Notes under the pieces: model-generated
What the model was told of the DNA's origin: nothing
The model's input: the letters and a program-made list of their open reading frames with translations, nothing else
The model's database searches: none
DNA from: a virus
Taxonomy: Duplodnaviria > Heunggongvirae > Uroviricota > Caudoviricetes
DNA: 41,286 nt
Virus record (IMG/VR): IMGVR_UViG_2851933302_000002
Span: 1-41,286 of that record
Strand: one strand, 5' to 3'
Position numbers and translations under genes: made by a program
Part shown: positions 1 through 18,527 of the stretch, one piece after another
How the letters are laid out: each line of letters opens with the position of its first letter
Numbering within the stretch: position 1 is the first letter of the stretch

Positions 1-1131
1 TCAAATGACCAGTTTTTTCCATTCCTTACCGCGTGCGTCGTTGTAAATATCGGTCATTTTTTGATTCGAATGGCCTAGCAAAATTTTGGTATCAACCCCC
101 TGCTCTCTGAACAATCGCTCTGATAAAGATCTCTGCTCATGGAAAGAGGGAGGGGTGCCATTAGCACGCCAGTTGTAATCCACAGAATCCCGGGCTTTTT
201 TAAATGCAACGGTTAATGTTGCTGGCTTAACCATCCCGCCGCGCTTAGCTGTCCCTTTCGCGTGATGGTGGTGCAATAGCCACGGACTAAGAACGCAATC
301 GCGGCAGGATGACACCACATCATCTAGGGTGAGATTTAATTTATCGCAACGCAGAGCCAGAGGGATGGCAATCCGGGTTCCTGTTTTTTGCTGTTCGACA
401 TGAAGATAACCATCCCGGATATCCGAAAATTGCATTTTGCAAATATCTGAAAGGCGCTGGCCTGTCATCAGTGCCAGCAGCATACCGCGCTGTAAAAAGT
501 AACCATCCTTTTCCGCTGCGTTATAAATCATCATCCACTCATCAAAAGTCAGTCGCTGTCTTGATATCCGCACCTGCGGTTTTTTTGCCGATTCTGCAGG
601 GTTAAAGCCTGGCGGGACATCGCCCGTTTGCTGAGCTTCCCGGAAAACATCGATCAGTACTTTCCTGAAAATTTGTCCCATTCTGTTATGTCCTCTGGCC
701 TTGTACTCTTCCAGTACTGATACCACATCTTTTACGGTTATGGCATCTAACGGTCTGGTGCCAAAACGTTCATCAAATACCCTGAGAGGGGCCGCTTTCT
801 GTTTCAGCGTGTTGAGTTTGATCTCGCCGTTTTCATATCTTTCCTGTTGAATTTTTCTGTAATTATTCAGAAAAATGGTAACGGTTGATGAACCGCCGGT
901 ATCACTAATAATTTTCTCCTGCAGACTGAGCATTTGTTCCATTTGCTGCCGGGCAAGACGGCTGTTCGCTTCTGCTGCAATAGTTTCTGCCAGTTTCTGG
1001 TCAATACTGCCGAGACCGTGATTTTTGCCTGTTATGGGATGCCTGTAACGCCAGTAAACTTTGTTATTTCTTTTGTCAAAATACGGAGATAATCCCGGAA
1101 CATCGGTTTTATATTTTCGCGGGCGCGCCAT
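1..1131 (-). CDS. int: Phage integrase (tyrosine recombinase, lambda Int family)
   Basis: 376-aa ORF at the prophage edge. The C-terminal region carries tyrosine-recombinase-like motifs (HxxR, catalytic-Tyr region near the end) as I read them. The start overlaps the upstream xis-like gene. Confidence 0.9.
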   Translation of the reverse strand: MARPRKYKTDVPGLSPYFDKRNNKVYWRYRHPITGKNHGLGSIDQKLAETIAAEANSRLARQQMEQMLSLQEKIISDTGGSSTVTIFLNNYRKIQQERYENGEIKLNTLKQKAAPLRVFDERFGTRPLDAITVKDVVSVLEEYKARGHNRMGQIFRKVLIDVFREAQQTGDVPPGFNPAESAKKPQVRISRQRLTFDEWMMIYNAAEKDGYFLQRGMLLALMTGQRLSDICKMQFSDIRDGYLHVEQQKTGTRIAIPLALRCDKLNLTLDDVVSSCRDCVLSPWLLHHHHAKGTAKRGGMVKPATLTVAFKKARDSVDYNWRANGTPPSFHEQRSLSERLFREQGVDTKILLGHSNQKMTDIYNDARGKEWKKLVI

Positions 1132-10159: not shown

Positions 10160-10846
10160 ATGACCCCAATAAAAATATTTATGACTATTGCTGATTTCAA
10201 ACGGCCTAAATTGGAGCTCCCAAACGGGGCAAACAAACTACTACTGCACTCTTGCTGTGCTCCATGTTCCGGTGAAGTGATGGAGGCGCTTCAGGCCTCG
10301 GGAATCGACTACACCATCTTTTTCTACAACCCGAACATTCATCCTCAGAAAGAGTATTTAATTCGTAAGGATGAAAATATTCGCTTTGCTGAACAACACG
10401 GCGTGCCGTTTATCGATGCTGATTACGACACCGACAACTGGTTTGAACGTGCCAAAGGAATGGAATGGGAGCCTGAGAGGGGGATCCGTTGTACCATGTG
10501 TTTTGACATGCGTTTTGAGCGGACAGCGTTGTACGCTGCTGAAAATGGTTTCAGTGTGATCAGCAGTTCACTGGGCATTTCACGCTGGAAAAATATGCAG
10601 CAGGTTAACGAGTGTGGGCGGCGAGCTGTTGCGCATTATCCGGGTATGGTGTACTGGGATTATAACTGGCGCAAGCAGGGCGGCTCGTCCCGTATGATTG
10701 AAATCAGCAAGCGCGAAAAATTCTATCAGCAGGAATATTGTGGCTGTGTGTATTCTCTGCGCGATACCAATCTACACCGCAAATCTCAGGGACGCCCTCT
10801 TATCAAAATTGGCCAACTCCACTACGGAAAAGAAGAGAAGGAGTGA
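10160..10846 (+). CDS. QueH-like protein (DUF208, epoxyqueuosine reductase family)
   Basis: 228-aa ORF with the [11 protein letters not shown] motif and further Cys residues (CTMC, CGC) that I recall as characteristic of DUF208/QueH. Family assignment is from memory of the motif. Confidence 0.65.
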
Positions 10847-12736: not shown

Positions 12737-13102
12737 ATGACTGAACGCATAGAATTTGTTTTGCCTTACCCGCCAACGGTGAACACTTACTGGCGACGTC
12801 GTGGCAGCACATATTTTGTATCAAAAGTCGGTGAGCGTTATCGCCGTGATGTGGCGCTTATTGTTCGCCAGCAGCAACTGAAATTAAACCTGTCCGGAAG
12901 GCCGGCAATAGAAATTATTGCAGAGCCACCGGATAAGCGCCGTCGTGACCTGGACAATATCCTGAAGGCACCACTGGATGTACTGACGCATGCGGGGCTG
13001 CTCATAGACGACGAGCAGTTTGATGAAATTAATATTGTGCGCGGTCAGCTTGTTCCTGGTGGGCGGTTGGGGATAAAAATCACAGAACTGGAGTACGCAT
13101 GA
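12737..13102 (+). CDS. rusA: Holliday junction resolvase RusA
   Basis: 121-aa ORF with the RusA-like N-terminal motif (LPYPPTVNTYW) and an acidic catalytic region. Classical position upstream of Q. Confidence 0.85.
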   Translation: MTERIEFVLPYPPTVNTYWRRRGSTYFVSKVGERYRRDVALIVRQQQLKLNLSGRPAIEIIAEPPDKRRRDLDNILKAPLDVLTHAGLLIDDEQFDEINIVRGQLVPGGRLGIKITELEYA

Positions 13103-13788
13103 ATAACCAGTATTTACAGTTTGTTCGTGAGCAACTCATGATTGCCACCGCCGATTTGAGTGGATCAACAAAAGGGCAGCTTGAGGCCTGGCAGGAGAAT
13201 GCCATGTTTGATACAGGGCGTTACAGGCGTAAAAAAATCCGGTACCGCGATGAAGTGACTGGAAAAATGATAACGCGGGATAATCCACCAATCCCGGGAA
13301 AGCAATCGCTGGCGAAGGGGGTGTCAATTCCTCTCGTCAGTCCGGTTGAGTTTTCGACATCATCGTGGCGGCGGGCTGTTCTGTCTCTTGAAGAACATCA
13401 TAAAGCCTGGTTGTTGTGGTGTTACAGCGGGAGTATTTGTTGGGAATATCAGATCGCGATAACGCAGTGGGTGTGGAATGAATTTAAAACCCGGTACGGC
13501 ACCAGAAAAATTGCAGGGAAAACGCAGGAGCGCGTGAAGAAGTTGATCTGGCTGGCGGCACAGGATGTCAGAGGATGGATTACCGGGTGTGAGGTCTACC
13601 AGAGACAGGAGCTTGCCAGACTGTGTGGAGTTAAGCCTGATAACTGGAGCCATAATTATGCGAACTACTGGCGTGAGATGTGCGATATTTTTAAGAGTCT
13701 CGATAGAGAATCTGTGATTTGCACCGTGAAAATAAGAGCGCAACAAAAAGCGACTTTTTCACGACGAGATATTGCAAAAGTCAATTAA
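13099..13788 (+). CDS. Late-gene antiterminator Q-like protein (phage 82/Qin QuuQ type)
   Basis: 229-aa ORF overlapping the rusA stop (ATGA). Size and position fit the large Q family; followed by a promoter/terminator-like intergenic region. No motif-level confirmation. Confidence 0.55.
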   Translation: MNNQYLQFVREQLMIATADLSGSTKGQLEAWQENAMFDTGRYRRKKIRYRDEVTGKMITRDNPPIPGKQSLAKGVSIPLVSPVEFSTSSWRRAVLSLEEHHKAWLLWCYSGSICWEYQIAITQWVWNEFKTRYGTRKIAGKTQERVKKLIWLAAQDVRGWITGCEVYQRQELARLCGVKPDNWSHNYANYWREMCDIFKSLDRESVICTVKIRAQQKATFSRRDIAKVN

Positions 13789-13857
13789 ATAGCGTACGTT
13801 TCGTATAAATCTGATATTTTGCCGATTTTGTACGCGATGGCAAAGTAAGAAAAAAAA

Positions 13858-13880
13858 CTGCCGTCAGGCGGTTTTTTTTT
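13858..13880 (+). terminator. Candidate tR'-like terminator downstream of Q
   Basis: Short 5-bp hairpin (CTGCC-GTCA-GGCGG, one G-U pair) followed by T9 and preceded by A7. Confidence 0.5.
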
Positions 13881-14002
13881 ATGCCCAAAATCGCGTCAGT
13901 ACAGTAAACACGCTGGTGGTTGCGAATACGGGTCTTTCAGCTTGCTGGCTTTTTCGACAAGAGTTATTGGTATGTCACGTTAACCGGAAAAAGGAAAAAG
14001 AC

Positions 14003-14200
14003 ATGCTAAAACAGCAGGATATGACAGAAACCGCCAGAGTGGTGTTTAATGAATTAAGCGTTACCGAACCGGCGACAGTCGGGGAGATAGCGCAGAATAC
14101 TTACCTTTCACGCGAACGCTGCCAGTTAATACTGACTCAGCTGGTTATGGCGGGTCTGGCAGACTATCAGTTCGGTTGTTACAGACGCCTTCCGCAGTGA
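14003..14200 (+). CDS. Small winged-helix-like protein upstream of the DNA methyltransferase (possible controller)
   Basis: 65-aa ORF from the ATG at 14003 with SD AAGGA. HTH-like segment TVGEIAQNTYLSRERCQLILTQL. Confidence 0.4.
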   Translation: MLKQQDMTETARVVFNELSVTEPATVGEIAQNTYLSRERCQLILTQLVMAGLADYQFGCYRRLPQ

Positions 14201-14350
14201 AGGCTTTTTTATTTGTGGTAAATGGGCGGCTGGTGGGTGTTAGGGGCACTTACCAGCCATCTGCTCATGCGTTGGGTTCACAAGCAAACCTCAGGCCCAC
14301 TGCTTTGCGCAAAAGCAGAATGAGCCTATCAGAGACAGGCTTAATGATCC

Positions 14351-15400
14351 ATGCTTAATACTGTAAAAATATCCAGTTGTGAGTTAATCAACGCCGACTG
14401 CCTGGAATTTATCCGGTCGTTACCCGAAAATTCTGTTGACCTGATAGTCACGGACCCGCCGTACTTTAAAGTGAAGCCTGAGGGCTGGGATAACCAGTGG
14501 AAGGGCGACGATGATTACCTGAAGTGGCTGGACCAGTGTCTGGCGCAGTTCTGGCGGGTGCTGAAACCTGTCGGAAGTCTTTACCTGTTCTGTGGTCATC
14601 GCCTGGCATCTGATATCGAAATCATGATGCGTGAACGCTTCAGTGTGCTGAACCATATTATCTGGGCGAAGCCGTCCGGACGCTGGAACGGATGCAACAA
14701 GGAAAGCCTGCGGGCGTATTTCCCCGCCACAGAGCGCATTCTGTTCGCGGAACATTATCAGGGGCCGTATCGTCCGAAAGATGCCGGGTATGCGGCGAAG
14801 GGCAGTGCACTGAAACAGCATGTGATGGCCCCGCTGATTTCTTACTTTCGTGATGCGCGCGCGGCCCTGGGGATAACGGCAAAACAGATTGCAGATGTCA
14901 CAGGAAAGAAAAACATGGTGTCGCACTGGTTCAGTGCCAGTCAGTGGCAGCTACCGAACGAAAGCGATTATCTGAAATTACAGTCGCTGTTTGCCCGGGT
15001 GGCAGAAGAGAAACATCAGCGCGGTGAACTGGAAAAGCCCCACCACCAGCTGGTGGATACGTATACGTCACTGAACCGGCAGTATGTGGAGCTGCAGAGT
15101 GAATATAAGCATCTGCGGCGGTATTTTGGTGTGACGGCGCAGGTGCCGTACACGGATGTATGGACACATAAACCGGTGCAGTTCTATCCCGGGAAACATC
15201 CGTGCGAAAAACCGGCAGAAATGCTGCAGCAGATAATCAGCGCAAGCAGTCGTCCGGGTGACCTGGTTGCAGATTTTTTTATGGGCTCAGGTTCAACGGT
15301 AAAAGTGGCACTGGCGCTCGGGCGTCGTGCGATTGGCGTTGAACTGGAGACCGGACGTTTTGAGCAGACAGTCAGGGAAGTTCAGGATTTAATCGTTTGA
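14351..15400 (+). CDS. DNA methyltransferase (beta-class N6-adenine/N4-cytosine type, orphan)
   Basis: 349-aa ORF with motif IV DPPY (TDPPYF) preceding motif I FxGSG (FFMGSGST), i.e. permuted beta-class order. No adjacent restriction endonuclease gene. Confidence 0.85.
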   Translation: MLNTVKISSCELINADCLEFIRSLPENSVDLIVTDPPYFKVKPEGWDNQWKGDDDYLKWLDQCLAQFWRVLKPVGSLYLFCGHRLASDIEIMMRERFSVLNHIIWAKPSGRWNGCNKESLRAYFPATERILFAEHYQGPYRPKDAGYAAKGSALKQHVMAPLISYFRDARAALGITAKQIADVTGKKNMVSHWFSASQWQLPNESDYLKLQSLFARVAEEKHQRGELEKPHHQLVDTYTSLNRQYVELQSEYKHLRRYFGVTAQVPYTDVWTHKPVQFYPGKHPCEKPAEMLQQIISASSRPGDLVADFFMGSGSTVKVALALGRRAIGVELETGRFEQTVREVQDLIV

Positions 15401-15449
15401 AACGGATGAGATTGCAGAATTAATTACGCACCATTATTATTCTGCTCCC

Positions 15450-15525
15450 GGCCCTTTAGCTCAGTGGTGAGAGCGAGCGACTCATAATCGCCAGGTCGCT
15501 GGTTCAAATCCAGCAAGGGCCACCA
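15450..15525 (+). tRNA. ileZ: tRNA with anticodon CAT (Ile2/Met type; ileZ-like)
   Basis: 76-nt cloverleaf. Acceptor stem GGCCCTT/AAGGGCC, anticodon CAT at 15483-15485, T-loop GGTTCAAATCC, 3' CCA. Confidence 0.85.
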
Positions 15526-15532
15526 TCACATA

Positions 15533-15609
15533 CCGCCATTAGCTCATCAGGAAAGAGCGCCAGCTTTCGAAGCTGGTTGCGCGGAGTTCGGGTCCCCGAA
15601 GGCGGTCCA
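15533..15609 (+). tRNA. argN: tRNA-Arg (anticodon TCG; argN-like)
   Basis: 77-nt candidate. Anticodon stem CCAGC/GCTGG with loop TTTCGAA (anticodon TCG), 3' CCA. One mismatch in the acceptor stem and one in the T-stem. Confidence 0.7.
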
Positions 15610-15622
15610 TTATCTGTATCCT

Positions 15623-15699
15623 GCGTTGTTAGCTCAGCCGGACAGAGCAATTGCCTTCTAAGCAATCGGTCACTGGTTCGAATCCAGTACAACGCGCCA
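15623..15699 (+). tRNA. argO: tRNA-Arg (anticodon TCT; argO-like)
   Basis: 77-nt cloverleaf. Acceptor GCGTTGT/ACAACGC, anticodon loop CTTCTAA (TCT), T-loop GGTTCGAATCC, 3' CCA. Confidence 0.85.
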
Positions 15700-15714
15700 C
15701 ACTTATTTTCCCTG

Positions 15715-15737
15715 GCTCGCTTTTGCGGGCTTTTTTT
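15715..15737 (+). terminator. Terminator-like hairpin after the tRNA cluster
   Basis: GCTCGC-TTTT-GCGGGC hairpin followed by T7. Confidence 0.55.
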
Positions 15738-15743
15738 AAATGT

Positions 15744-15960
15744 CTCACAATTCAGGCGGTTGACTGTTGTCTGGTTTGCGGGGAGTTTGTTAAAAGAAAC
15801 TGGCATGGTGAATCCCCCTGTGCGGAGGGGCAATCAGCGAGTAGGTATATGGGATAATCGCGGATTCAGGTGCTGGTACTGAATTCACCGGGAGGCACCC
15901 GGCACCATGCAATGGCACATAGCGCCACTCTCCAGCCCCTCTCCGGAGGGGCTTTTCTGT
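15744..15960 (+). repeat. Structured repeat unit, copy A (promoter-like TTGACT plus hairpins plus terminator)
   Basis: Shares blocks with copy B: CTCACAATTCAG..GTTGAC, GCATGGTGAATCCCCCTG.GCGGAGGGGC, CACCGGGAGGCACCCGGCACCATG, and the terminator hairpin AGCCCCTCTCCGGAGGGGCT followed by T-run. Confidence 0.6.
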
Positions 15961-16147
15961 GCCGGATACATCACAGTTTCTGGAACCTTAGGTACTACAG
16001 TATCAGTCAGGGTGCTATATTTTCAGATGTGATGAAAGCCTGTCAGCAGGCAGGGCGTATCGGAAATGACCCAGTAGAGAAAACGTTGACTCAGATACCG
16101 GTGCTGAGTTACCGGGAAACCGGCATCACATGACCGCTATCCTTCCA

Positions 16148-16174
16148 GGCCCATCCGCTCCGGTGGGCCTTTTT
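16148..16174 (+). terminator. Rho-independent terminator between repeat copies
   Basis: GGCCCA-(10-nt loop)-TGGGCC hairpin followed by TTTTT. Confidence 0.6.
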
Positions 16175-16211
16175 ACTGCAGAAAACAGGTTCCCCGTTAA
16201 ATGCTATGTTG

Positions 16212-16446
16212 CTCACAATTCAGTAAGTTGACAGTTGCCTGTCAGACTGGGCATTTGTTAAAAAAATTTCGCATGGTGAATCCCCCTGAGCGGAGGGGCG
16301 ACTGGTGACGGTATAATCTCTGATTATCAAAACGAGAATGACGCGGGTTTAGTGGCACCGGGCTGAACTCACCGGGAGGCACCCGGCACCATGTGCATGA
16401 TGATACAGATACGCGGCTTTAGCCCCTCTCCGGAGGGGCTTTCTTA
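16212..16446 (+). repeat. Structured repeat unit, copy B
   Basis: Second tandem copy of the copy A element. Contains TTGACA, a perfect TATAAT at about 16309-16314, the same GC hairpins and the AGCCCCTCTCCGGAGGGGCT terminator hairpin. Confidence 0.6.
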
Positions 16447-16451
16447 TGGAC

Positions 16452-16480
16452 AAAAAAAGCCCGCGCTGGGAGACGCGGGC
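16452..16480 (-). terminator. Minus-strand rho-independent terminator
   Basis: GCCCGCG-CTGGGAGA-CGCGGGC hairpin preceded by A7 on the plus strand, i.e. a T-run after the hairpin on the minus strand. Confidence 0.5.
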
Positions 16481-16673
16481 GGCAAGGAATAAACAATAAA
16501 ACGTGAAGTAATATTTCAGCTGGCGAATAATACCCCATAGTAATCACTCTGCGCAACTGCGCGGTCTTTTTCGAATTGCGGGCTGTAGTCTCCCTTCTGC
16601 CATTGTCCTGTAACTTCCGGACTTCAGCCTGCTCCTTATCTGACTCACAACATTATCCCGCCCGGGAGGATTC

Positions 16674-18527
16674 ATGGCATTTAAACACTATGACGTGGTC
16701 AGGGCGGCATCGCCGTCAGACCTTGCGAAACGACTGACACAAAAACTGAAGGAGGGCTGGCAGCCGTTTGGTAGTCCGGTGGCCATAACCCCTTATACCC
16801 TGATGCAGGCGATTGCAGCAGAAGGTGATGTGGTCGTCAGTGGTGCAACTGAGCCGGAGTGGTACTACGTCATCGTACTGGCCGGGCAATCCAATGCCAT
16901 GGCTTACGGTGAAGGGCTTCCGCTTCCGGATTCATACGATGCGCCCCATCCGCGCATTAAGCAACTGGCCCGTCGTAACACAGTGACTCCCGGTGGTGAA
17001 GTATGCGTATTTAACGACATCATTCCTGCTGACCATTGTCTGCATGATGTTCAGGATATGAGTACGATTAACCATCCCCGGGCTGACCTGAGCAAAGGGC
17101 AGTACGGCTGTGTCGGACAGGGCTTACATATTGCCAAAAAACTGCTTCCGTATATCCCTAATAATGCGGGGATCCTGCTGGTACCATGCTGTCGTGGTGG
17201 TTCGGCATTCACCCAGGGCACGGAGGGGACATTCAGCGAGTCCACGGGAGCCAGTCAGGATTCGGCTCGCTGGGGAGTGGGTAAGCCGTTATATCAGGAT
17301 CTGCTTTTCCGCACGAAGGCAGCATTGCAGAAAAACCCGAAAAACGTTTTGCTGGCGATATGCTGGATGCAGGGGGAATTCGATATGACGAATGCCAGTT
17401 ACGCCCAGCAGCCAGCAGCATTTCTTGCAATGGTACAGCAGTTCCGTGCTGACCTTGCCGGGCTGGCGGCGCAGTGTCACGGTGGAAGTCCGGCATCAGT
17501 CCCCTGGATTTGTGGCGACACGACATACGCGTGGAAACAAGAACACGGTACGCAATATGAAGTGGTATATGGTGCATATAAAGGTAAAGAATCCCAGCAG
17601 ATTTATTTTGTTCCCTTTATGACCGATGGTAGCGGAGTTAATACACCGACAAACAACCCGTCAGAAGATCCTGATATTGCCGGGTCTGGTTATTACGGTT
17701 CGGCATCCCGAACGAACAAAAACTGGGTATCATCAAATCGCCCGACGCATTTCAGCTCATGGGCGCGTCGTGGCATTATTCCCGATCGTATGGCAACTGC
17801 TATTCTGAACGTAGCCGGTCGCACCTTAGCCTTCATTAGTGGTAAGGCACCGGAAATCAAACCCTCGCCCGGCGGCGACACGCCATCGGGGCCGTCTGAA
17901 GATGCATCCATACGCACAATCTCCCTGTTGCCGACAGCCGGAGACGCTGCTGCGCAGGGCTGGAGCATTAAGAATGGCGGAATTCAGTTGTCAGATGGTG
18001 TATTTAAGATCACCAAGCAGAGCAATAAAGCCTGGTCCCTGACGCGCCCGGTGGATGACGCAGTCTCCCTGCTGACACGGGGTGGCAGACTGAGCTGTAA
18101 GTTTCGACTGTCAGGCGCACTGACCAACAACCAGTTCGGTCTGGGAATTTATCTGTATACCGATGTAGCGTTACCTGACGTCGTGGCGATGACCGGGACT
18201 GGTAACCCGTTCCTGATGTCGTTCTTCACCCAGACCACAGACGGCAAACTGAATCTGATGCATCACAAGAAAGCAGGAAACACAAAGTTGGGCGAGTTCG
18301 GGAATTACAGTAACGACTGGCAGACGCTGGAGCTGGTGTTCACCGCCGGCAGTGCCACGGTTACTCCGAAACTGAATGGAGTGGCTGGCCCGGCATTCCA
18401 GGTCATAAAAGACAGTCTGACACTGGGGCTGAATGCGCTGACGCTGACGGATATTACCAAAAATGCAGCGTATGGCGTTGAGATAGAAAGTCTGGTGCTG
18501 GAGATAAATGCACCGGCATCATCATAA
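16674..18527 (+). CDS. nanS-p: Prophage sialate O-acetylesterase (NanS-p-like; SASA esterase domain)
   Basis: 617-aa ORF with SD GGGAGGA. N-terminal module followed by an SGNH/SASA-like esterase motif (VLAGQSNAMAYG). Sits between the tRNAs and the lysis cassette, as in Stx-type lambdoid phages. Confidence 0.75.
   Translation: MAFKHYDVVRAASPSDLAKRLTQKLKEGWQPFGSPVAITPYTLMQAIAAEGDVVVSGATEPEWYYVIVLAGQSNAMAYGEGLPLPDSYDAPHPRIKQLARRNTVTPGGEVCVFNDIIPADHCLHDVQDMSTINHPRADLSKGQYGCVGQGLHIAKKLLPYIPNNAGILLVPCCRGGSAFTQGTEGTFSESTGASQDSARWGVGKPLYQDLLFRTKAALQKNPKNVLLAICWMQGEFDMTNASYAQQPAAFLAMVQQFRADLAGLAAQCHGGSPASVPWICGDTTYAWKQEHGTQYEVVYGAYKGKESQQIYFVPFMTDGSGVNTPTNNPSEDPDIAGSGYYGSASRTNKNWVSSNRPTHFSSWARRGIIPDRMATAILNVAGRTLAFISGKAPEIKPSPGGDTPSGPSEDASIRTISLLPTAGDAAAQGWSIKNGGIQLSDGVFKITKQSNKAWSLTRPVDDAVSLLTRGGRLSCKFRLSGALTNNQFGLGIYLYTDVALPDVVAMTGTGNPFLMSFFTQTTDGKLNLMHHKKAGNTKLGEFGNYSNDWQTLELVFTAGSATVTPKLNGVAGPAFQVIKDSLTLGLNALTLTDITKNAAYGVEIESLVLEINAPASS

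Follow-up and report, generated by a model that had tools for sequence, protein, structure and literature searches.

A conserved structured leader RNA in front of an M.EcoGII-family adenine methyltransferase gene in a lambdoid prophage of Escherichia coli

The adenine methyltransferases (MTases) M.EcoGI and M.EcoGII, found in prophages of Escherichia coli O104:H4 C227-11 (Murray et al. 2018, PMC5778455), are 95%-identical paralogues (333 of 349 residues shared, 16 positions differing) that methylate adenine in any sequence context (PMC5778455). Both are unexpressed in their native strain, and their expression is deleterious and slows growth (PMC5778455); a review places M.EcoGII beside Mom of phage Mu as 'silent in lysogens and toxic' (PMC12707154). 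Phage-borne MTases of extremely relaxed adenine specificity, with a small upstream regulator gene, are also described from Mu-like prophages (Hia5, Hin1523 and Nme1821; PMC3299994). Here we analyze positions 13,789 to 15,400 of a 41,286-nt virus record (IMG/VR IMGVR_UViG_2851933302_000002; the whole stretch is hereafter the window), which is a full lambdoid prophage of E. coli, from integrase to presumed tail genes, that resembles the Shiga toxin (Stx) phages and is stx-less. Within this segment an M.EcoGII-like MTase gene follows a small winged-helix open reading frame (ORF), two terminator-like hairpins and a conserved structured leader RNA, elements for which no description was found in the available portions of the published M.EcoGII and M.EcoGI papers. 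We consider it probable that a non-specific adenine methylase is made late under the antiterminator Q, hypermethylates progeny DNA for anti-restriction, and is kept off in the lysogen behind the two terminators.

The initial annotation of this segment, made from the sequence alone, had called a beta-class MTase with DPPY before an FxGxG-type motif, and domain searches bore this out: the 349-aa product matched Pfam PF01555 (N6_N4_Mtase; E 2.5e-44, 152.3 bits against a cutoff of 26.7) over residues 29-340 on a 221-position profile, and PADLOC MTase_II (PDLC03265) at 3e-166. DPPY occupies residues 35-38 (nt 14453-14464) and F-M-G-S-G residues 310-314 (nt 15278-15292); since the former is N-terminal to FxGxG, with the target-recognition domain (TRD) between them, the motifs are in beta-class order. 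Neither is degenerate, both being invariant, together with many other residues, in 25 family members whose identity to the window MTase is 57-65%. The large internal insertion that had also been pointed out is real, but it is no peculiarity of this protein. Solved relatives (M.RsrI, CcrM, M1.MboII and 9c3u) align with residues 8-141 and 270-343 only, and in the AlphaFold model residues ~147-254 form an all-helical module (predicted local distance difference test score, pLDDT, ~80-92) that agrees with the published M.EcoGII model (PMC11551740); judged from these models, the middle region is the family's normal target-recognition region.

Alignment of the window MTase with M.EcoGII gave 328 identities over 350 positions (94%). 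The reference was machine-read from Supplementary Table S1 of PMC11551740 and contains reading errors, and since some of the mismatches are plainly of that kind, 94% is a lower bound and the 22 scored differences from M.EcoGII include such errors. The window MTase, M.EcoGII and M.EcoGI are alike in length (349 aa), beta-class order, central helical TRD and prophage setting. Reconstructed ancestors of the M.EcoGII clade are reported to be largely non-sequence-specific (PMC11551740). The specificity of this MTase, which the initial annotation had given as unknown, is answered by homology at this level of identity: the enzyme likely methylates adenine in essentially any context.

The MTase itself is already known, a near-copy of a characterised and commercially used prophage enzyme present in thousands of copies, and there is nothing new in it. 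An identical protein (WP_047340608.1 / AKK32861.1) occurs in E. coli APEC O18, the corresponding 90%-identity cluster has 5932 members, and the gene was found in 1965 of 5426 complete E. coli genomes. The DNA of segment 13789-15400 has matches of 81-95% identity in Stx2a/c/d phages, phiP27 and phage 1720a-02; the match to 1720a-02, whose MTase the M.EcoGII paper calls 'very similar' (PMC5778455), reaches 94.9%. Genomes of sequence type 131 (ST131) carry a gene 99.4% DNA-identical to that of the window. In the ST131 strain EC958, M.EcoMV is 99% identical to M.EcoGI and silent by reverse transcription PCR (PMC4659465), and going by the match, the ST131 gene is presumably that of M.EcoMV. Orthologues in O111 are listed as 'nonspecific' and gave no methylation signal in lysogens (PMC6602927). 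In RefSeq/NCBI the MTase is labelled 'site-specific DNA-methyltransferase' and the small ORF 'TrmB family transcriptional regulator'. Each of these names probably misleads, the first since the family has been characterised as non-specific and the second since it rests on a sub-threshold domain resemblance.

The position of the gene offers an account of this silence. As initially annotated, the MTase lies between Q and a tRNA cluster, Q ending with its stop codon at 13786-13788 and the tRNAs starting at 15450, and the elements follow each other in the order Q, putative late promoter PR', tR'-like terminator, small ORF, second hairpin, leader and MTase (Table 1). The first terminator has its stem-loop at 13860-13872, followed by T9, and the second at 14187-14204, followed by TTTTTTATTT and overlapping the stop codon of the small ORF; both are predicted intrinsic terminators. 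A G+C hairpin with a T-run stands at the place equivalent to the first in 24 of 24 aligned loci, with differing stem sequences, and a hairpin with co-varying stems lies 5' of the leader in most genera, whatever the upstream gene, being absent in Proteus and Providencia. PR' was placed where lambdoid phages have it, directly 3' of Q and ahead of a terminator. The pattern TTGCAAAA..CAA..AAATA is common to loci with related Q alleles (L164, L162, L165 and L190), and the ~70 nt 5' of the first terminator differ from one Q allele to another, as a Q-specific PR'/qut region should. In E. coli this stretch co-varies with Q type, the full 13789-14002 being present in 305 genomes versus its 3' part in 2284.

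Being behind two terminator-like hairpins 3' of Q, the MTase would be an early gene of a Q-dependent late operon, and we infer that its cassette is the first cargo of that operon. The MTase is directly 5' of holin/lysis genes in Yersinia, Orbus, Vibrio anguillarum, Erwinia and Serratia, and a Q gene was called upstream of it in the Yersinia and Orbus loci and in a metagenome locus (L323). The layout recalls the lambdoid PR'-tR' late leader (as in lambda 6S RNA and in the short transcript that Stx phages make from PR'), with a strong intrinsic terminator within ~95 nt of Q and cargo after it. That leader is ordinary lambdoid backbone, and the window is specific in that the cargo to follow tR' first is the MTase cassette. 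The region 3' of tR' and 5' of the small ORF holds a further block, cTTGCTG-N16-CAGAGTTAYNTGTRTGTCA, which is kept across genera from E. coli to Plesiomonas and has no good -10 hexamer of the sigma-70 type. It showed no covarying hairpin, and an inverted repeat considered there was unsupported, its arms shifting register between genera. A weak minus-strand match to STnc370 over the tR' hairpin (39 bits, gathering score 54) was taken as noise.

The spacer DNA between the two ORFs is more conserved than the protein encoded by the small ORF. Most of it forms the leader, whose nucleotide identity to the window across orthologous loci is 0.55-0.77, compared with 0.36-0.50 at third codon positions of the MTase. 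Its helices (P0, P1, P2 and, tentatively, P3; Table 1) were obtained concordantly from RNAalifold, single-sequence folds and manual inspection. In an alignment of 30 Enterobacterales sequences, 95% of leader cells pair versus 31-45% in slid-partner controls, six pairs change on both sides, and the 54 G-U cells among the pairs are compatible with an RNA of the + strand only. The viral pattern-selected alignment (A4) was too uniform to add much covariation, and a more diverse alignment (A5), to which Yersinia, Erwinia, Serratia, Xenorhabdus, Sodalis, Orbus and Vibrio were added, was therefore used. Here, 15 leader pairs changed on both sides versus 9.6 ± 1.4 in shuffled alignments (0 of 500 reached 15), among them three of the four P3 pairs. 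The stem of P1 varies in sequence (GGCUGGUGGGUG, GACUGUAAAAGUG, GACAGUGAGGAUG, GGCAGAAGAGUG, GCGGUGAUGGUG, ACUGCUGCAUG).

A covariance model of the leader (R1) scored the window at 100 bits and all 80 of 80 pattern-selected viral loci at 89-142 bits, and it found the leader in eight further genera, including Yersinia, Erwinia, Sodalis, Serratia, Xenorhabdus, Vibrio (V. anguillarum) and Orbus. The MTase follows the leader in each of the 76 pattern-selected viral loci with room downstream, and the distance from the end of the leader to the MTase ATG, ~19 nt, is near constant, with exceptions in Orbus (14 nt) and Vibrio. In most of the genera sampled, the leader stands 5' of the MTase start codon. 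One enterobacterial genome (L176, 5168-5288) retains a full-scoring leader of 112 bits though the MTase is deleted. Rfam 15 gave no match in 14200-14350 at E <= 1, and only noise at E <= 10 when the region was searched in isolation; RefSeq lists no feature at 14212-14342, and a literature search with the leader sequence string gave no match.

Several simpler identities for the leader were considered and set aside. A conserved leader peptide was rejected, since the candidate (MGGWWVL* in many genera, 31 aa in the window, 18 aa in Proteus) is unconserved and its indels are not in threes. RfaH ops, lambda nut boxA/boxB, HK022 put and a CRP site (TGTGA..TCACA) were dismissed by eye from sequence and spacing. 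A pairing of GGUC (14276-79) with GAUC (-8 to -5), which could sequester the start region, was unsupported in Erwinia, Xenorhabdus, Orbus and Vibrio.

With Mu com-mom and the Com-like genes before other non-specific adenine MTases as precedent, we read the leader as a translational gate, a role to which we give an even chance. The MTase start codon has no Shine-Dalgarno sequence, and most of the stretch from -15 to -5 is predicted to pair (mean unpaired probability 0.34, versus 0.54 at the start of the small ORF). A wider proposal, to which we lean somewhat less, is that the leader represents an undescribed class of cis-regulatory RNA of M.EcoGII-family genes in Enterobacterales, Vibrionales and Orbales that gates translation of a toxic methylase; such gating might be exerted by the leader alone, with the acidic winged-helix protein as a non-zinc-finger analogue of Com, or via a ligand or RNase. 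Of the features of this locus, the leader alone appears to be undescribed.

Alternatively, the leader could serve RNase III or RNase E processing and stability, setting the MTase message apart from the upstream transcript, or it could be a metabolite-sensing riboswitch, for example one for S-adenosylmethionine (SAM) or S-adenosylhomocysteine (SAH); we regard both as unlikely. The helix of P1 is long and nearly perfect (~13-20 bp in different orthologues), as RNase III substrates are; many unpaired nucleotides are invariant (AAUGGG, CAUU, AACCAAG and AAAGC), as in ligand- or protein-binding RNAs, and the gene downstream uses SAM. However, no known riboswitch model matches the leader, it is not followed by a terminator or other expression platform, and the fixed 19-nt spacing to the AUG, with P3 lying over the Shine-Dalgarno position, points to translation initiation.

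The small ORF is counted here from an ATG preceded by the Shine-Dalgarno sequence AAGGA (GTG 13916 is the start of the mechanical ORF). Its earlier description as a 65-aa helix-turn-helix (HTH)-like ORF upstream of the MTase agrees with a sub-threshold Pfam TrmB match (E 0.0026, 18 bits against 25.6) and with an AlphaFold model of three helices and a beta-hairpin wing, the best of which had a pLDDT of 91.7 and the other four 52-65. It matches PHROG 331 at 1.4e-37, and no match to it was found in PADLOC or NCBIfam. Its homologues number 334, and its 90%-identity cluster has 1869 members. It keeps an intact frame of 62-67 aa at 30 of the 31 species-level loci and shows a codon-position identity of pos2 > pos1 > pos3 (e.g. 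0.92/0.89/0.51). An intact frame with conservation of the coding type indicates that the small ORF is a real gene. A search for a specific structural relative was unsuccessful: Foldseek returned 1933 generic winged-helix PDB matches, none at E <= 0.001, the best (E 1.5e-3) and the others being of the MarR/OhrR/IclR or O-MTase type, and winged helices of the DpnI type that read N6-methyladenine were not among the top 50.

The small ORF is linked closely to the cassette. In close relatives from IMG/VR the MTase follows it in 66 of 68 loci, and it precedes the MTase in 74 of 75. Among species-representative genomes the MTase follows it in 32 of 34, or 32 of 33 assessable loci given that one exception ends at a contig edge, with a gap of 134-153 nt in at least 12 genera. 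These genomes include E. albertii, Kluyvera, Salmonella, Klebsiella, Citrobacter, Buttiauxella, Enterobacter, Proteus, Providencia, Mangrovibacter, Mixta, Scandinavium and Plesiomonas, and ORF and gap are also kept in Erwinia and Xenorhabdus. The linkage is not absolute, as the ORF is missing in 11 of 77 loci selected by leader pattern (~14%), where the leader comes directly after tR' or after an unrelated ORF and the MTase is kept in each of the 10 that extend far enough downstream to hold it. The small ORF occurs in E. coli at 4057 places versus 2789 for the MTase. In O157 prophages (L158 4001-5047; ATCC 43894) a 237-aa AraC-family gene follows it in place of the MTase; the replacement junction lies inside the leader, after GGCGGCTGGTGGG, leaving the small ORF and the beginning of the leader as remnants. 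The 237-aa protein was considered as a truncated MTase and rejected for want of similarity. The small ORF is a conserved partner of the MTase cassette, and we take it to be an accessory modulator rather than an essential controller, perhaps an analogue of Com or a subunit that binds the MTase.

Conservation of winged-helix ORF, leader and MTase in the same order and with a similar gap across these genera invites comparison with Mu, where a small ORF and a structured mRNA region beside the start codon likewise precede the gene of a promiscuous, toxic, late-expressed anti-restriction DNA modifier (properties that the window MTase would have by homology and position), and where the modifier, too, is silent in lysogens (PMC12707154; PMC6483171). 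The small protein and the leader might thus form a switch like that of Com and mom, the protein binding the leader and opening or closing the ribosome-binding region of the MTase so that the toxic enzyme is made only after the small protein accumulates late. We think such a switch improbable. In its favour, Com activates mom translation by binding mom mRNA (PMC6483171), and Com-like genes precede non-specific adenine MTases in Mu-like prophages (PMC3299994). In V. anguillarum (L315 2862-2987) a 41-aa ORF of the form CxxC..CxxC stands between leader and MTase, in lieu of the upstream winged-helix ORF, with Zn_ribbon_Com as its best, sub-threshold Pfam match (E 0.0016) and PHROG 6417 'translational regulator' at 3.3e-5; in this locus the MTase is preceded by the Shine-Dalgarno sequence GGAGG. 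Yet 12 of 14 orthologues of the winged-helix protein are acidic to neutral (pI 4.4-6.8), an unusual property among RNA-binding proteins. The protein also lacks the hallmarks of Mu Com (PF10122, a basic zinc ribbon of ~40-60 aa with CxxC...CxxC), having two Cys and a winged-helix fold with generic structural matches. Its absence from the loci noted above and the full activity of plasmid-expressed M.EcoGII (PMC5778455) also argue against the switch.

Other differences from the Mu-type systems are that Mom is not a methyltransferase, that the leader of the window, with ~130 nt and four helices, is much larger, and that the window is without evident Dam, OxyR or C-type transcriptional control, Q antitermination being the control we propose. 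Hia5, Hin1523 and Nme1821 resemble the window MTase further in that their activity in vivo escaped detection under laboratory conditions (Drozdz et al. 2012, PMC3299994). They are alpha-class enzymes of a different sequence family (PMC5778455), lie in Mu-like and not in lambdoid late operons, and have as their partner a zinc finger of the Com type in place of a winged helix.

The initial annotation had instead suggested that the small ORF could be a controller protein and that phage-borne orphan MTases can act in epigenetic control. A C-protein-like transcription factor paired with an MTase of discrete motif that regulates the lysogen is, in our estimation, extremely unlikely. The small ORF is directly upstream on the same strand and has a DNA-binding type of fold, as do the small HTH-type ORFs just upstream of, and co-oriented with, modification-related genes in restriction-modification (RM) systems, and regulatory orphan phage MTases exist. 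C proteins of RM systems, however, are Xre-type HTH dimers that bind C-boxes before their own gene and time the expression of a restriction endonuclease (REase). Pfam found no Xre-type HTH (HTH_3) in the small ORF, no + strand promoter was called before it or the MTase, its conserved upstream block held no robust inverted repeat, and its product is acidic to neutral, dispensable in about one locus in seven, and outlives replacement of the MTase. Nor was a REase gene found by Pfam and PADLOC scans of the neighbours and larger early (left) ORFs, a search in which the early small ORFs and most late-region ORFs were not scanned. The neighbours Q, RusA, DUF968/HNH, tRNAs and SASA esterase gave no PADLOC match, so that the conventional Type II arrangement of a REase beside the MTase is not seen and the MTase is, as first described, an orphan. 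Control of the lysogen by methylation is itself unlikely given that orthologous MTases are non-specific, silent, without methylation signal and deleterious when expressed, and that two terminator-like hairpins stand before the gene here.

Taken in sequence, late expression under Q would proceed as follows. In the lysogen the MTase would be off, with transcription from PR' or by read-through stopping at the two terminators, and a start codon placed after a folded leader with no Shine-Dalgarno sequence would add to the silence. Upon induction, Q-modified RNA polymerase would read through both terminators, the MTase would hypermethylate replicating phage DNA ahead of packaging, and progeny would resist those Type I, II and III restriction enzymes that are blocked by adenine methylation as they enter new hosts. 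Protection against host restriction, as initially proposed, is the accepted role for this MTase family.

A number of observations weigh against this account or parts of it. A sigma-70 consensus scan called no + strand promoter in 13600-16700, the putative PR' included. The scored differences from M.EcoGII include four in the TRD (A164S, A183V, P191S and S236D). The anti-restriction benefit is assumed, no demonstration having been found for a phage with an M.EcoGII-type enzyme. Regarding the leader, its covariation comes from a limited number of independent lineages, the difference in start-region accessibility is small and varies between loci, and its conservation could serve RNA processing or stability, not translation. 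A Mu-like prophage of V. parahaemolyticus (L314) has a family MTase and no detectable leader, and in V. anguillarum the leader precedes the small Com-like ORF, not the MTase itself.

The main benefit of the MTase might also lie elsewhere than in anti-restriction, in shutdown of host transcription or replication, in a packaging mark, or in blocking nucleases other than REases, through hypermethylation or the weak RNA methylation of the enzyme. M.EcoGII also methylates RNA and DNA:RNA hybrids (PMC5778455), the slowed growth of expressing hosts was mentioned above (PMC5778455), and some phage MTases act in packaging (P1 Dmt, cited in PMC12707154). We rate this as very unlikely: no evidence for such roles was found, and the MTase is often lost or replaced while the prophage backbone is kept (L158, L176), which fits an accessory host-range function.

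For late expression under Q, the placement of the MTase behind two terminators 3' of Q would be a simple explanation for the published silence of M.EcoGI and M.EcoGII in lysogens. The leader, unlisted in Rfam 15 and RefSeq, offers a concrete way into the question of how a phage stays unharmed by a genome-wide methylase before lysis, and is a candidate part for tight control of toxic genes. If the gating role is true, the leader would be a second, independently evolved solution to the com-mom problem, and one attached to an enzyme that has come into wide use as a reagent for chromatin footprinting.

Table 1. Features of the MTase locus and of the surrounding prophage (positions in the window).
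Feature	Position	Strand	Basis or remarks
Conserved structured leader RNA, ~130 nt	14212-14342	+	alignments, RNAalifold, covariation
Leader P0 (UGUGR/UCACA)	14214-14218 pairs with 14278-14282		
Leader P1, long hairpin	14222-14268		
Leader P2, hairpin	14294-14326		
Leader P3 (tentative)	14282-14285 (AAGC) pairs with 14339-14342 (GCUU)		at -12 to -9 from AUG
Putative late promoter PR' region	13772-13810	+	placed by position; hexamers TTGCAA 13772-13777 with TACGTT 13795-13800 or TATAAA 13804-13809
tR'-like intrinsic terminator	13850-13881	+	A-run, stem GCCGTCAGGCGGT, T9; terminator scan
Conserved block cTTGCTG-N16-CAGAGTTAYNTGTRTGTCA	13941-13978	+	between tR' and small ORF
Small winged-helix ORF, 65 aa	14003-14200	+	PHROG 331 (function unknown); databases: 'TrmB family' or 'hypothetical'
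Second terminator-like hairpin	14187-14214	+	GCCTTCCGCAGTGAAGGC then TTTTTTATTT; terminator scan
DNA methyltransferase ORF, 349 aa	14351-15400	+	beta-class N6-adenine, M.EcoGI/M.EcoGII family
Integrase	1-1131	-	
Genes after integrase, in order			exonuclease-domain protein, cI-like repressor, replication genes, DUF1627, DUF977, QueH homologue
DUF968/HNH protein, 351 aa	11681-12736		directly 5' of RusA and Q
RusA	12737-13102		
Antiterminator Q	13099-13788	+	Pfam PF06323 Phage_antiter_Q 1.4e-83; PHROG 304 'anti-termination protein Q-like' 6.9e-104
tRNA genes	15450-15525, 15533-15609, 15623-15699	+	ARAGORN; Rfam tRNA
SASA-type esterase	16674-18527		
Lysozyme, then long ORFs	3' of esterase		long ORFs presumed to be head and tail genes

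By its context the Q gene marks the start of the late operon, and no stx gene was found in the window. At its C terminus the DUF968 protein upstream of RusA matches an HNH-type nuclease (PF16784, 3.9e-07), and it is not among the recognised restriction enzymes. The tRNA cluster comprises a gene with a CAT anticodon followed by Arg-TCG and Arg-TCT (ARAGORN). ARAGORN calls the first tRNA-Met, and its counterparts in O157 Sakai and ATCC 43894 are annotated ileZ/tRNA-Ile, which implies a lysidine-modified CAT anticodon. The phage that bears these three tRNA genes also carries a tRNA-modification gene, a homologue of QueH (epoxyqueuosine reductase; PF02677, 1.1e-65) at 10160-10846 in the early-right region. 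Between the tRNA cluster and the esterase gene, which is the position of stx in Stx phages, the gammaproteobacterial small RNA STnc100 of Rfam matches in tandem, strongly at 15774-15964 and 16242-16451 (165 and 136 bits) and weakly at 16003-16176 (30 bits; gathering score 47), and both strong copies end in an identical terminator hairpin, AGCCCCTCTCCGGAGGGGCT.

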